NCBI GenBank assembly: GCA_963843575.1
Contig: CAWJKZ010000019.1
Coordinates: forward strand, 256,001-320,000
DNA from: an uncultured Acidobacteriota bacterium
Lineage (GTDB): Bacteria; Acidobacteriota; UBA6911
DNA length: 64,000 nucleotides
Reading direction: 5' to 3'
The position numbers were made by a program, and so were the translations under genes. This document shows positions 14,782-61,758 of the stretch, in pieces; the stretch's first letter is position 1; each line of letters opens with the position of its first letter. A model generated the notes under the pieces. The model ran no database searches and had not been told where the DNA came from. It saw only the letters and a program-made list of their open reading frames with translations.

Positions 14782-14847
14782 GCGAGCAGTTTTGATCGGA
14801 CGCGTGAGCAAAACTGAACAGACACGTGAGCACCCCTGGGGTATAAA
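14782..14847 (+). promoter_or_regulatory. Tandem-box promoter P1 (small membrane protein and Crp paralog 1)
   Basis: GCGAGCAGTTTTGATC + GTGAGCAAAACTGAAC (22-bp period); CAGACA-N17-TATAAA. Confidence 0.85.
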
Positions 14848-14975
14848 AATTGCGGGTCCGGCAGGATCAACCGTTTTTTCCAGGGCGTGGAAGTCCACTG
14901 CAGCCTGGCCAAAAGCACTGAACGGGGCGCGAACCCTTTTGGGTTTTGCTTCAAACAGACAGCGGGAGGTTTATC

Positions 14976-15161
14976 GTGTCTTTAATTAGTCTCGTCATGG
15001 TCTTGATCGTAGTCGGCGTTCTCCTTTGGCTGGTGAATAACTATATTCCAATGGCGGGCTCAATCAAAAGGATCCTGAATGCCGTCGTGGTTATCGCCGT
15101 GGTTTTGTGGCTCTTGAATGCTTTTGGAGTTCTCAGTTCCCTCTCCAGGATACGCATCTGA
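14976..15161 (+). CDS. Small two-helix membrane protein (Thivi_2564-like)
   Basis: GGGAGG RBS, GTG start; SLISLVMVLIVVGVLLWLVNNYIPM...ILNAVVVIAVVLWLL. Confidence 0.8.
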   Translation: MSLISLVMVLIVVGVLLWLVNNYIPMAGSIKRILNAVVVIAVVLWLLNAFGVLSSLSRIRI

Positions 15162-15242
15162 GGGGAAGCACAGGCGGACAATGATAATTCGTGCCTGTTT
15201 ATGCCCGCTTTGCAGCCAAGCGGCAATGGAAAGGATGTTTTC

Positions 15243-15902
15243 ATGCCAAGTAAGAAAAGCTCGCCTGTCGATTGGGAAGCCGTTCTCGCTGGAATCTCTC
15301 ACGGGAAGACCATTTCGGAATACGGCCCGGACCGCCGCATCTTCGATCAAGGACAAGCCGCGGATTCCATATTCTATCTTCGACAGGGAAAGGTGAAGCT
15401 GTCGGTTATATCCAAACAGGGCAAGGAAGCGATCGTCGCGACACTGGGCGCCGGCGAGTTCCTCGGCGAGGGGTGCCTCGCAGGGCAGCCGTTACGCATG
15501 GCAACGGCTACAACTGTCACGGAGTGCAGCCTCTTCCGGATCGAGAAGGTGTTGATGCTGCGCGTGCTTCACGAGAAGCACGAGATCTCGGAATTGTTTG
15601 TCGCTCATTTGCTTTCTCGAAATGTCCGATATGAAGCGGATCTCGTGGACCAGCTTTTCAATTCGAGCGAAAAGCGTCTGGCGCGGATCCTCCTCCTGCT
15701 CGCTCATTTTGGCAAGGAAAGCAGAGCCGAACGTGTGTTTCCCGAAGTCAGTCAGGATAACCTTGCACAAATGATCGGCACGACCCGGTCGCGGGTCAGT
15801 CATTTCATGAACAAGTTCAGGAAGTTGGGCTTTATCGATTACAGCGATAACGACGGCCTGACGGTCAACAGTGGCCTGCTCAGCGTGGTTCTGCACGACT
15901 AG
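15243..15902 (+). CDS. Crp/Fnr family transcriptional regulator (paralog 1)
   Basis: cNMP-binding fold (IFDQG, GEFLGE...R) and C-terminal HTH (SQDNLAQMIGTTRSRVSHF). Confidence 0.92.
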   Translation: MPSKKSSPVDWEAVLAGISHGKTISEYGPDRRIFDQGQAADSIFYLRQGKVKLSVISKQGKEAIVATLGAGEFLGEGCLAGQPLRMATATTVTECSLFRIEKVLMLRVLHEKHEISELFVAHLLSRNVRYEADLVDQLFNSSEKRLARILLLLAHFGKESRAERVFPEVSQDNLAQMIGTTRSRVSHFMNKFRKLGFIDYSDNDGLTVNSGLLSVVLHD

Positions 15903-58747: not shown

Positions 58748-58868
58748 GGTCTCTTTGCCGGAGGCCTATCTCCGAAAAGAGAGGACTTTACAGGTCTTCC
58801 GTTGGCCAAGCCGACAAGGTCAACCGGACGCGCGGCAAAAGCAAGGCCCTACGGAGAGATGCGGCGGG

Positions 58869-60815
58869 TCATGACGCCTTGTGCCGGACCAGCTCTGGAA
58901 TCTGCTCGACAGCCTGCGCCAGGCTCGTGAGCAAGCGATCCGGTTGGGTTCGTTCGAAACGCGCCTTGGCCTTCTCCGTATCGCCATTGAACCCCCAGAC
59001 TCCGACAACGAGTTTGAGTCTGGGAAAGCGTTCCCGAATCAGTTTGCACATCGTCCGCGCGGGTGGAAAAGCATAAGGCGGCAATGCGGAGATGCAGATG
59101 ACGTCGTCTTGTCTCTTTTCAATCAACGCCAGCAACTCCGCGGGAGAAGTGTGGGCGATCGGAAGAGAGAGAGCCGAGTGGCCCCCCTGCTCCAGGAGCT
59201 GCGCCAGCATGGCGGCCGTGACCTCATCGGCCTGATCATTTGCGGGAAGGCAGAGTATTCTGGCGCTGTGATGCTCAACCGGGCCTGATTCCGCCGTGGC
59301 ATCGTCGGCTGGGGTTGAATCCTGCACCGGTTGGTACTCCGAAAGTTCGGTAATCATTTCGTTGATGCTGAGAAAGAGAAACGCCTCCCTGGTTGTTTCA
59401 ATCGCCCCTTGGTGGCGATCCTGCTCGGCCAGGCTCAACGCAGGTACGAGCACCGAATCGTATAACTCCAGCAGGGATTTTTCTTTCAAGAACCGGGTCA
59501 CAATAGCTTGCGCCTCCGGTTGGTCCATCGCCAGCAAGCGCTGGTAGATCTGAGCTTCCGCCCCCAGAGCTACTTCATCCCCCAGCAGGACATGAAGAAA
59601 AGAGAGTTGAGGAACGTAGCGGCCCAGCACAACGACGCAAACGGTAAGGGGCGTAGACAGGATGAGACCGGCTGGACCCCACAGAATAGTCCAAAAGACA
59701 GCCGCCACCAGCAGCGCCAACGAAGAGATTCCCGTGTTCGCCCCATAAAGCCACGGCTCGACGAAATTGGCAATGATCAGTTCGAGACCGGCAAACAGCA
59801 GGAACACCAGCAGCGGCGGCAGCCAGCTGTCAAAAGCTGCTAACGAGAGGATGATCGGCAGAGCGGCGGCAACCGTCGTGCCGACATACGGCACGATGCG
59901 CAGGAGGCCGGCGATGACTCCCCAGAGCGCGGCATTGGGCACGCCAATGCAGTACAGCCCGAATCCGAACAGAGTTCCAAAGCCGGCATTGACCAGGAGC
60001 TGCATCAACAGGTATCGGCTGACACGTTGCGCCGCATCGTCGAGCGCCTGCGTCATGATATTGATCTGCCCGAGTCCAACCAGCCCGAAGAAACGCTGTC
60101 TCAAGTCGAATCTCTTGGTCAACATGAAGACCGTGAATATGAGGACAAGTCCGGCCAGTGCCAGCGGCCGAAGAACGGGCTGGACCAGATCACCAAGGTA
60201 GTCCAATCCGTTTGCCGGCGATTGCACGATCTGTACGGGCAGGGGAAGCGCGGGAGTATTCGGTGCACTGCGCTGCTTCCGATTCTGCACCGCAGGACCT
60301 GGCTCCGGAGAGGGTGCCATCGGGCTGGTAAGTTCGCTCGCGATTTCCTTCAAGCTGCCGGCAGCCAGGCCTAACGGTCCCTTTGTGGGAATGCGAAGCG
60401 CTTCCATCTTGGCGTGAATGTTCTGGCGGTACGTGGGAAGCTTCTCGGCAATGTCAACGAGCTGAATTGCGATGATCCAGCCAACGAAGCCGGCCGCCGC
60501 CATCGTTACCAGGACGGTCACAGCGACGGCCGGCATGCGGCCGATGCGTGATCTTTGCAGGAGCGCGACCACAGGGGTCAAAACGAACGTCAGAATGAGA
60601 GCAAATGCCAGGGGGATCAGAATTTCGCGGGCAAAGTACAGCGCTGCGATCGTACCAAACAGCGTGACCATCGCCCAGCTATTGGAGCTTGGGAGGTGGC
60701 GGCGTGATGCGCTGATGGCCACCGGTACTGAAGCACTGCGCAAGTCAACCACGATGGTCGCGGGATCCGTCCTGAGGCGCCTGCGGAAGAATGGTCGGTT
60801 CCAGATGAAAGCCAT
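58869..60815 (-). CDS. AI-2E family transporter with long cytoplasmic C-terminal extension
   Basis: LYFAREILIP, RVSRYL, VPYVG, EPWLYG, WGPAGLILSTP. Confidence 0.88.
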   Translation of the reverse strand: MAFIWNRPFFRRRLRTDPATIVVDLRSASVPVAISASRRHLPSSNSWAMVTLFGTIAALYFAREILIPLAFALILTFVLTPVVALLQRSRIGRMPAVAVTVLVTMAAAGFVGWIIAIQLVDIAEKLPTYRQNIHAKMEALRIPTKGPLGLAAGSLKEIASELTSPMAPSPEPGPAVQNRKQRSAPNTPALPLPVQIVQSPANGLDYLGDLVQPVLRPLALAGLVLIFTVFMLTKRFDLRQRFFGLVGLGQINIMTQALDDAAQRVSRYLLMQLLVNAGFGTLFGFGLYCIGVPNAALWGVIAGLLRIVPYVGTTVAAALPIILSLAAFDSWLPPLLVFLLFAGLELIIANFVEPWLYGANTGISSLALLVAAVFWTILWGPAGLILSTPLTVCVVVLGRYVPQLSFLHVLLGDEVALGAEAQIYQRLLAMDQPEAQAIVTRFLKEKSLLELYDSVLVPALSLAEQDRHQGAIETTREAFLFLSINEMITELSEYQPVQDSTPADDATAESGPVEHHSARILCLPANDQADEVTAAMLAQLLEQGGHSALSLPIAHTSPAELLALIEKRQDDVICISALPPYAFPPARTMCKLIRERFPRLKLVVGVWGFNGDTEKAKARFERTQPDRLLTSLAQAVEQIPELVRHKAS

Positions 60816-61691
60816 GTTAGGGGCCTTTGGGAGGCGATACCGCACGCCAGTAACCAAAAACGAGAGTCCCCGGCGCACTGCTCGCGAGGAGGGCCATCAG
60901 CCCACGAAGGCAATTCTGCTGCAAGGAGGCTGACCGGGTAAATTTCGGCACCTGCCGCCTATGTATGAGCAGTCTCTGCGACGCATAGTAAAAACAATCT
61001 GCGATTTTGACCGCGCAGCCTCCCTGGTTGGGATGCGTGCCTCTAGCTTCCGATATGGGGCTGATGTCTCCTTCGGCTCCGTGAACCCCGGAGTCCAAAG
61101 CCGATTACAGAGGAGATTTTATCCCAAAACGCTGTTGCAGCATAAGGAATCCCACAACACTTCTACTTACACGGCGGATTTGTTTATCCTGCTCACGAAA
61201 AGGTATGCAAAGAGATCCTGCTAGGCTCGTGGACCGCCGAATCACGTGCTGACCAACTCTGTCGAGGTTCGCTACTTCCCACGGCCCGTTCCGCTGCCTG
61301 TTGGGCAGCGCGTCCGTGGGGGGGAGACTCGTTCCCACCCGGGCGATCCTGTGCGGCTCGCTCAAAGGCCTTCCAGACGCCTTTGAAACGGCGTCGATCA
61401 GCACGAGAGACCGGTGACTCGTCCGCATCCCGACCTTGGAGCAGCGCATCACAGCGGCCGTCTGGAGCAGATGACCTGGCAGCGGGAACGGAGCACGGGG
61501 GACGTCCGTGGATCTGCCTGCCGTGTTGGCGCTCGACTGAGTCACATCGATAATTGCAGAACTATGCGGGCGATTCAATGCAGAACACACGGGAGCGGCT
61601 ACAACCGCCGCCTTTAAACCGAACCTGATTTTGCACTGTTGGGGTCCCCCTGGAAACCAACGACTCCCTGGAGCGAGGAGGCTGTCCTGGG

Positions 61692-61758
61692 ATGAGCGCT
61701 TTTGACCATACGTGTGAGCGGTATTGCACTGAAAAGTGAGTCCCCCAAAAGGTATGGT
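61692..61758 (+). promoter_or_regulatory. Tandem-box promoter P12 (PRC-barrel and cupin)
   Basis: ATGAGCGCTTTTGACC + GTGAGCGGTATTGCAC; CTGAAA-N18-TATGGT. Confidence 0.78.

Follow-up and report, generated by a model that had tools for sequence, protein, structure and literature searches.

What governs a promoter element of fixed architecture that recurs ahead of gene after gene in one region of a bacterial genome, and which protein reads it? The question is raised by a 64,000-nt stretch of DNA from an uncultured Acidobacteriota bacterium (hereafter the window; C19:256001-320000 in an assembly of 6.68 Mb, 27 contigs and 88% completeness), in which a first-pass annotation had reported twelve intergenic copies of a promoter module carrying two upstream boxes. 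All twelve are present, at the positions and on the strands listed below. They belong to a conserved set of about 28 promoters, for which a CRP/FNR-family regulator encoded within the set (CRP1) is the best candidate reader judged from sequence, and we consider it probable that this regulator activates the promoters from a class II position.

A rigid tandem-box promoter module

A 42-nt pattern of the module (TGAGC-N5-TGANC-N7-TGAGC-N5-TGAAC-N-GACA, ≤3 mismatches allowed) matched 11 of the 12 copies, compared with a mean of 0 and a maximum of 0 in 100 dinucleotide-preserving shuffles of the window. The twelfth, 36266−, falls outside the pattern: its distal box is degenerate, and it is the single copy for which a box offset of 23 rather than 22 bp had been noted, as is indeed the case. 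Copy 36331+ is weak too, scoring 29.7 against 57–75 in the other ten with a whole-module position weight matrix (PWM) built from those ten strong window copies. Neither the pattern nor the PWM located a copy at positions 1–14781, in keeping with the earlier statement that the first 14.7 kb hold none.

Across the whole assembly, the PWM identified 28 sites scoring ≥29, plus three doubtful ones (15.7–19.4). Contig C19 carries 19 of the 28, all between 270,782 and 342,018 (window-equivalent 14,782–86,018), which form an island of ~71 kb that extends 22 kb beyond the window end, and the remaining nine are found on seven contigs (C9, C10 (two), C11 (two), C13, C14, C21 and C23). The copy with the 23-bp offset adds one, giving 20 on C19 and 28 to 29 modules in the genome. 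The regulon is thus clustered, as had been proposed, but comprises about 28 promoters rather than 12 and reaches beyond the window. Orientation is strongly biased genome-wide, the 42-nt pattern having 27 matches in this genome versus 0 for the reversed pattern, and module copies sit between called genes. A same-strand open reading frame (ORF) always lies ahead, as the first-pass annotation had claimed, although the first such ORF is sometimes a small membrane peptide that it had not seen.

The order within the module is constant: two 16-bp boxes, a cTGACA −35, a spacer of 17–18 nt and a TATAAA −10, ~66 bp in total. With a PWM of the two boxes alone, which gave 28 hits in the genome, the distal-to-proximal offset was 22 bp in 26 of 26 box pairs, and 0 pairs occurred at other offsets from 16 to 33. 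TGACA (≤1 mismatch) followed 24 of these 28 hits, and the spacer to the best −10-like hexamer measured 17 nt in 16 of them and 18 nt in seven. Strict single boxes outside modules were no commoner in this genome than their reversed control (8 versus 7), so that here the box is confined to full modules. The consensus from 99 non-identical sites in this genome and related loci reads ATGAGCAATTTTGACCA n A c g t GTGAGCAgTACTGAAC TGACA CGCGAat .. CCCC .. GG TATAAA, its conserved columns being somewhat favoured because the sites were gathered with a window-derived PWM.

Every box is made of two TGnnCA hexamers, 10 bp apart, giving a 16-bp frame of TG-N2-CA-N4-TG-N2-CA. The TGT-N12-ACA palindrome that had been put forward for the best copies needs an A at position 39, which is present in 17% of the 99 sites, and is not general. 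Because TGnnCA is its own reverse complement, direct and inverted readings both exceed background: half-site similarity was 0.65 for a direct repeat at offset 10 and 0.58 and 0.49 for a dyad, against a baseline of ~0.27. Within the modules, positions 3–4 of the two halves differ in a conserved way.

The promoter core departs from consensus at particular bases, the first −35 base being C in 99% of sites and the last −10 base T in just 27%. Canonical promoters (TTGACA-N16-18-TATAAT, ≤1 mismatch) numbered 54 in this genome versus 3 for the reversed control, which argues that the housekeeping sigma factor reads the usual consensus. With a transcription start assumed 7 nt past the −10, the pseudo-dyads of the proximal and distal boxes would be centred at −41.5 and −63.5, respectively, which agrees with the class II geometry recognised earlier. 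A reading of TGAAC as the −35 of an extracytoplasmic function (ECF) sigma factor was rejected by eye: the region 16–17 nt downstream is not conserved.

The window holds the following modules (PWM scores as above):

14782–14847 (+): module with distal box, proximal box, cAGACA, 17 nt and TATAAA; PWM 61.9
14826–14841: third in-phase box, 22 bp past the proximal box of module 14782, filling the −35/−10 spacer of that module exactly
16092–16157 (+): module directly 3′ of the CRP1 gene; PWM 61.4
26602–26668 (−): module with an 18-nt spacer, facing 25801–26385 and 24914–25780; PWM 75.3
28212–28278 (+): module facing two ORFs of unknown family, 28451–29017 and 29014–29385; PWM 66.3
36200–36266 (−): weak module (CTGACG, 17 nt, TATCAT) facing a 583-aa protein of unknown family, 34254–36005
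36331–36396 (+): weak module facing a dodecin gene, 36517–36720; PWM 29.7
36874–36939 (+): module facing a class A penicillin-binding protein, 37202–39349, and a P-type cation ATPase, 39489–41918; PWM 57.1
41944–42009 (+): module facing a Gly-zipper protein, 42146–42787; PWM 73.0
47970–48036 (+): module facing a YflT/ActD-like protein, 48042–48794; PWM 60.9
54203–54268 (+): module facing small membrane ORFs, 54274–54402 and 54421–54645; PWM 62.5
55218–55283 (+): module facing a Ysc84-CsbD fusion, 55708–56700, and a 251-aa protein of unknown family, 56895–57650; PWM 62.3
61692–61758 (+): module with TGAAA, 18 nt and TATGGT, facing a PRC-barrel protein, 61779–62705, and a cupin, 62814–63206; PWM 58.8

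The module is conserved beyond this genome. It was found in 15 of 41 relatives, whose copy numbers range from 1 to 33, and none of the 41 contained the reversed pattern; the unpublished genome G034, one of the 41, was counted as lacking both the module and a close CRP homologue. G034 also enters the counts given below for the NarL-type regulator, the 251-aa island protein and the AraC family, and nothing else here draws on it. An even sample of 401 Acidobacteriota genomes (≥90% complete, ≤2 mismatches) contained seven with the module, and the control gave 0. Copies are clustered in relatives' genomes also. Records around regulator homologues were all metagenome-assembled genomes, mostly labelled Acidobacteriota or Terriglobia. 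For 52 of 80 modules in other genomes' loci, the downstream ORF is homologous to a module-downstream ORF here, a proportion that is biased because the loci were centred on the regulator gene. Of the earlier proposal of one co-activated regulon, the single conserved regulon behind an intergenic and oriented motif therefore stands, its co-activation being presumed.

A CRP/FNR-family protein as candidate reader

Three DNA-binding proteins are encoded on the island, namely two CRP paralogues and a NarL-type response regulator:

15243–15902 (+): CRP1, CRP/FNR-family regulator of 219 aa, start set from 219-aa homologues; recognition helix GTTRSRVSHFMNKF
22517–23170 (+): NarL-type response regulator
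43320–43976 (+): CRP2, 73–75% identical to CRP1; recognition helix GTTRSRISHFMNRF

CRP1 matches Pfam cNMP_binding (PF00027; 1.1e-18, 67.5 bits against a cut-off of 27.5) and HTH_Crp_2 (PF13545; 1.9e-10, 41 bits against a cut-off of 27), and its helix-turn-helix aligns gap-free with those of GlxR and Mycobacterium tuberculosis CRP. The closest solved structure was matched at an expect value (E) of 4e-17. It was placed in no named subfamily, all NCBIfam equivalog hits falling far below cut-off (the best, CRP, at 52 versus 266 bits). Bases are read in this family through motifs such as R-E-x-x-x-R in CAP and E-x-x-S-R in FNR, the latter accompanied by a Cys cluster. The CRP1 helix reads R-S-R-V-S-H, without the canonical Glu (compare RETVGR), and the protein has only two Cys residues and no N-terminal Cys cluster; the missing Glu would fit a non-canonical site.

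Co-occurrence in both genome samples points to the same protein, and supports the CRP/FNR-type reader suggested by the first-pass annotation. Among the 41 relatives, a CRP1 homologue at E ≤1e-102 is present in exactly the 15 genomes that carry the module; three of the other 26 have only homologues of 49–59% identity, and the remaining 23 yielded no match at 1e-20. Within the sample of 401, the seven genomes with the module are exactly those seven that have a homologue of ≥69% identity, and 357 genomes have neither. Two other island genes served as controls: an orthologue of the NarL-type regulator (≥73% identity) was found in seven of the 15 module genomes and the 251-aa island protein in six of the 15. 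Since neither tracks the module, the match between CRP1 and module is not a general property of island genes.

Linkage is also apparent at individual loci. Of 80 loci around CRP1 homologues, 43 contain at least one module, and in 19 a module lies immediately 5′ of the homologue. Of five genomes without a module near the sampled paralogue, four carry 10–22 modules elsewhere, and where a genome has only one to three, the module adjoins the CRP gene (G006, G033 and G377). G377, from another class, has a compact cassette in the order CRP gene, module, CRP gene, module. In the window, CRP1 is probably autoregulated, because its gene sits behind a module. Modules driving the regulator gene often have a poor −10 (GGTAGC, GGTAAT or CTAGCC, in loci L022, L040, L049, L052, L060 and L066), unlike those of target genes, in which the −10 is TATAAA. 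There was no visible covariation between recognition-helix variants and the box among the Terriglobia loci.

Sister lineages offer a simpler form of the site. We searched 24 loci (136 kb) around homologues of 49–66% identity from other families and classes with a 17-nt PWM pooled from both module boxes, and obtained 32 hits where ≤1.8 were expected from this genome's rate (module boxes included). Twelve of the 32 adjoin a CRP-like gene, up- or downstream, on its strand, and in one locus (L107) the order of CRP gene, single box and OmpA-family gene reproduces the window order of CRP1, module 16092 and OmpA-domain gene. Once box position 4 was neutralised, many sister sites scored on both strands, being perfect 16-bp palindromes such as TGTTCAAcaTTGAACA, TGGTCAatagTGACCA and TGTGCAgtccTGCACA. 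Palindromy in the same frame suggests a reader of dyad symmetry and a degenerate half-site, TGDKCAA; in the Terriglobia box, a TGAGCAA half is paired with a TTGAmCA half. Of 18 oriented single boxes, nine are followed 22–23 nt past the box by TAnnnT, as in the module, an arrangement whose chance occurrence we roughly estimate at a few percent per site; their −35 position reads CAGnnn, with no −35-like hexamer, which is how a classical class II promoter lacking a −35 is laid out. The ancestral form was probably a single box at the class II position beside the regulator gene, of which the tandem form and the large regulon would be an expansion in some Terriglobia; this is part of the activation scheme that we judge probable below.

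One residue of the recognition helix may bear on specificity. Loci whose regulator has an RSRVS helix (nine loci, 47 kb) contained 31 boxes with A15/T7/G8/C1 at position 4, whereas those with RSRVN or RSRIN (12 loci, 74 kb) contained nine boxes with T8/C1/A0, palindromes being entered on both strands in these counts; the module boxes of this genome have A48/T3/G1. In a gap-free alignment with GlxR and M. tuberculosis CRP, the Ser/Asn position falls on the N of their RETVNK motif. In the report on Clr of Sinorhizobium meliloti, CAP R180 and R185 are equated with Clr R195 and R200, and Clr N199 touches the TGT triplet in the crystal structure with DNA (PMC10127613). By those equivalences, the Ser/Asn position corresponds to N199. 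That the residue tracks box position 4 is suggestive only, because palindromes were counted twice and Ser-type loci derive from about three lineages.

Activation and its alternatives

We propose that the module is the control element of a class II, CRP-type activated regulon that was expanded, and became tandem, in some Terriglobia, an explanation we consider probable if by no means certain. A dimer from an uncharacterised CRP/FNR subfamily, represented here by CRP1 (15243–15902) and its paralogues, would occupy each 16-bp box as a dyad site, with TGAGCAA as the left half and TTGAmCA as the right. The proximal dimer would sit at about −41.5, contacting the −35 (cTGACA), and the distal dimer at about −63.5, which is two helical turns further upstream and on the same face of the DNA. 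Both dimers would recruit RNA polymerase with a sigma-70-type factor to ~28 promoters, which would drive general-stress or dormancy-type genes, the regulator's own gene, a two-component system and the KaiBC operon. What is observed is the module with its rigid geometry, conservation and gene content, together with the linkage of the CRP gene to the box and their co-occurrence; the binding of protein to box, activation by that binding, the transcript starts, a sensed signal and the cooperation of dimers are inferred.

Several observations weigh against this proposal. The value of −41.5 depends on an assumed transcription start, a search for sequencing runs that contain the locus having listed three soil DNA runs with small shares and no RNA run. 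Both the −35 (5/6) and the −10 (5/6) are good, so that activation is perhaps not obligatory in tandem modules. Polarity is conserved, with TGA on the same strand in all four half-sites, which is unusual for a symmetric dimer, and direct-repeat similarity slightly exceeds the dyad values. The site sets were gathered with PWMs from the window's own copies. On the protein side, the cNMP (cyclic nucleoside monophosphate) pocket retains Glu and Arg, but has Tyr/Glu at the positions of the base-reading Thr/Asn of M. tuberculosis CRP. Homologues of 48–66% identity occur without a tandem module in 37 of the 401 genomes, and the module was found in none of five of these rechecked at three mismatches. 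The cut-offs of E 1e-102 and 69% were set post hoc, with the data already seen; the gap in the 401-genome sample is small, the next genome standing at 66% (E 8e-92); and related genomes are not independent. The few lineages behind the Ser-type loci count here too, and Asn-type loci mostly have few or no boxes, with a PWM hit in three of 12.

The same promoters could be read with the opposite sign, the boxes being operators at which a CRP-like or other protein, on the tandem array plus a weak third in-phase unit over the spacer, represses otherwise strong promoters until stress lifts the block. A core near consensus (cTGACA, 17 nt, TATAAA) would suit such a scheme, as would a weak GA signal still present at 44-bp offset (0.61 and 0.58) and the full third box within the −35/−10 spacer of the CRP1 promoter (14826–14841), which may serve as an autorepression site at high regulator levels; GroESL and HSP20, moreover, are among the targets, and such genes are often repressor-controlled. 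Repressor operators nevertheless generally vary in position, whereas in 26 of 26 pairs these boxes stand at a single invariable distance from the −35 and −10. Nine of 18 boxes from other classes lie at the same distance from TAnnnT where there is no −35, a signature of activator dependence, and the first −35 and last −10 bases are systematically off consensus. We therefore regard repression as unlikely and favour activation, on account of the single fixed position, the off-consensus core bases and the −35-less single-box promoters. It is barely credible that the repeats are instead a mobile promoter cassette or an RNA motif and not a regulatory site. Many copies do occur in one island, and the PRC-barrel paralogues (61692+ and C11:166901−) share a near-identical module; yet only specific columns are conserved, spacers being variable and flanks unrelated, and the same columns are kept across genera and classes, while the window has no Rfam match and the conserved part lies upstream of the −10.

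The identity of the reader admits two further readings. Four same-strand TGAnCA half-sites spaced by 10, 12 and 10 bp could be recognised by an unlinked protein of another family (an OmpR/PhoB-type winged helix, an AraC/XylS-type monomer with two helix-turn-helix units per box, or an OxyR-like tetramer), the CRP genes being mere members of the regulon. Uniform TGA polarity and the excess of the offset-10 direct repeat (0.65) over the dyad (0.58, 0.49) would agree with this, direct 21–22-bp tandem sites over the −35 being typical of AraC/XylS proteins and four grooves at 10-12-10 of OxyR. We hold it to be decidedly unlikely, given that perfect palindromes stand in the same frame beside homologous CRP genes in other classes and that no such reader is linked to the module in minimal cassettes; a model of direct repeats only is weakened by the same palindromic sister sites. 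An OmpR-type reader was rejected, since the genome has 11 such genes, none of them on the island contig and the nearest ~14 kb from a module. An AraC-type reader was rejected on distribution: there are only two genes here, and the one profiled, 9 kb from the C10 modules, was matched in three of 41 genomes (G000, G017 at 55% and G023 at 27%), while the family as a whole occurs in 31 of 41 relatives, unrelated to module presence. The boxes might alternatively be read, in the manner of DosR, by the NarL-type regulator (22517–23170) behind module 16092+ with its HisKA_3 kinases. This gene does lie within a module-driven run beside kinases of the cognate type, and in the DosR dormancy regulon 20-bp boxes likewise occur in tandem, separated by about two turns, the proximal box covering the −35. 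The idea is very improbable, however: the ≥73% orthologue is found in just seven of 15 module genomes, best hits in the other eight being 41–61%; it is absent from the compact cassettes (G006, G033 and G377); and in G040 the modules and two CRP genes are on contig C87 and the best response-regulator hits on other contigs.

Returning to CRP-type activation, its parts could be joined into a larger picture, which we offer tentatively and consider doubtful as a whole. An unrecognised CRP subfamily would be the master switch of general stress or dormancy in abundant uncultured soil and peat Terriglobia and would bind polar tandem sites of 16 bp as an obligate dimer of dimers. The difference between TGAGCAA and TTGAmCA would orient each dimer to RNA polymerase, one Ser/Asn helix residue would switch the half-site between TGA and TGT, and feedback would run through the regulator and the KaiBC-kinase operon, so that a Kai timer might gate stress readiness in a non-phototroph.

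Regulon content and known systems

Families behind the modules include CsbD, YflT, HSP20, PRC-barrel (two), BON, dodecin, Gly-zipper, SPFH, STAS, GroES/GroEL and small membrane peptides. Such families mark stress regulons in the sigma-B and EcfG literature, and by gene content the module-driven set looks like a general-stress or dormancy-type regulon. Targets outside the window are Holin-X-like, HSP20, STAS (two), SPFH and radical SAM proteins; a VWA protein with a sortase; a protein of unknown family with GroES and GroEL; CsbD; an HlyD-ABC fusion; a PAS-GGDEF-EAL protein; GlgC; a second PRC-barrel protein; a BON protein; and a second, low-GC (guanine plus cytosine) KaiC with a CheB-like ORF. 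Operon membership past the first gene was assigned from adjacency throughout. Further genes behind modules in the window are:

14976–15161 (+): small membrane ORF of 61 aa with a GGAGG ribosome-binding site, read from the sequence; first ORF past module 14782
16465–18099 (+): OmpA-domain protein, behind module 16092
18739–22503 (+): CheB-CheR-PAS-HisKA_3 kinase fusion, 1254 aa
23497–24684 (+): PAS histidine kinase
24914–25780 (−): metallophosphoesterase, on the target side of module 26668−
25801–26385 (−): 194-aa protein of unknown family, on the target side of module 26668−
44326–45846 (+): KaiC
46026–46253 (+): KaiB
46262–46621 (+): KaiB
46647–47825 (+): PAS-HisKA_3 kinase, on the same strand as CRP2-KaiC-KaiB-KaiB
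49373–50932 (+): RNase II, downstream of the YflT/ActD-like gene

The genes from 16465 to 24684 (+) probably form an operon, to judge from their adjacency. CRP2, KaiC, the two KaiB and the kinase behind module 41944+ make up a Kai system of a non-phototroph within the same regulon. The second KaiC (525 aa) and its CheB-like ORF (L003 (G000:C10:628000-645850) 4607–6852 (−), behind module C10:635004−) have a codon usage unlike the rest of the genome, were overlooked by the codon-based gene caller and, given that deviation, may have been horizontally acquired. The two PRC-barrel paralogues (61692–61758; C11:166901 −) have near-identical modules including the unusual TGAAA −35 and TATGGT −10, suggesting that gene and promoter were duplicated as one.

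Leaders of 100–400 nt are commonly predicted (14854–15243, 16164–16465 and 55290–55708), and some leaders contain small membrane-peptide ORFs (14976–15161; 54274–54402; 54421–54645; L001:2761–2883 (−)). A subset of modules shares the sequence AAGTGTGnCTCG(A) a few nt past the −10, at the approximate coordinates 26590–26575 (−), 28285–28300 (+) and 42016–42031 (+), and also in L001 near 2975 (−) and L002 near 205 (+); possibly this is conserved sequence at the start of the transcript, or a signal in the 5′ untranslated region. Beyond the window end, glycan phosphorylase domains of the GH94 type extend across two adjacent same-strand ORFs of 758 and 612 aa (L001 (G000:C19:320001-340000) 7300–11926), which could reflect a frameshift or a natural split. 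Elsewhere in the window, 58869–60671 (−) encodes an AI-2E-family transporter fused to a B12-binding domain, and a 146-aa ORF (54759–55199) resembles a fragment of the AI-2E transporter family. No Rfam families or tRNAs were found in the window.

Acidobacteriota rank among the most abundant soil bacteria, and as far as our literature searches reach, a general-stress regulator or regulon is still undescribed in them; the searches returned no description of the motif, of an acidobacterial stress regulon or of KaiBC in Acidobacteria. The earlier interpretation was largely right: right in kind, with its class II geometry, CRP/FNR-type activator and undescribed site distinct from the CRP and FNR consensus, and wrong on the palindrome and on regulon size. 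The result is a testable regulatory code, in which a candidate regulator with one residue predicted to set specificity is matched to a module of 66 bp and some 28 promoters as its targets, and which can be tested without the uncultured hosts, using synthetic DNA and recombinant protein. The module could also be used as a marker for stress status in soil metatranscriptomes, and it illustrates one route of regulon growth, which would begin with a lone class II site next to the gene of the regulator and lead to an island of about twenty tandem-site promoters.

Class II CRP- and FNR-dependent promoters of Escherichia coli have a site centred at −41.5. The module resembles them in its putative 16-bp dyad frame, in a centre ~41.5 bp before the presumed start that abuts or overlaps the −35, and in a candidate regulator with cNMP-binding and HTH_Crp_2 domains. 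It differs in its half-site (TGDKCAA, not TGTGA or TTGAT), in the helix (RSRVSH, not RETVGR), in its obligatory second site 22 bp upstream, in halves that differ in a conserved way and in the good −35 that is kept. Tandem arrangements are known from M. tuberculosis, in which DosR/DevR controls an autoregulated dormancy regulon from tandem sites about two turns apart, the proximal one over the −35, and CRP at whiB1 is likewise tandem. DosR, in contrast, belongs to the NarL-type response regulators and has a palindrome of 20 bp as its site, and the NarL-type candidate here fails in co-occurrence (7/15).

Among CRP-family proteins, Clr of S. meliloti (cluster G) binds a 16-bp palindrome with TGT...ACA ends and the consensus HGTYHCNNNNGRWACA (PMC10127613). 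The CAP Glu is conserved in neither protein, the base-reading N199 of Clr stands at the Ser/Asn position of the CRP1 subfamily, and the sister-lineage palindromes TGTTCA-N4-TGAACA fit TGTT-N8-AACA. Clr is distant from CRP1 (PDB 7pza, E 1.4e-10), and the inner conserved C/G of the box lies one position further out (TGnnCA compared with TGTnnC of HGTYHCNNNNGRWACA). Clr sites are single, unlike the tandem modules, and the Clr regulon is not a stress island. In the low-oxygen persistence cluster lxa of Burkholderia cenocepacia, the motif is of the ordinary Anr/FNR type (TGA-N6-TCA), single and served by Anr-related regulators, and low-oxygen induction was measured. Among the systems compared, lxa is still the closest published one. 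It comprises ~50 genes, with one motif at 17 intergenic points inside the cluster and a few outside, and includes CRP-family regulators, two-component systems, a cation ATPase, an ABC transporter and an RNase (PMC3721108); it is, like the island described here, a one-motif cluster with CRP-family regulators inside it, and its motif was found by the comparison of upstream sequences.

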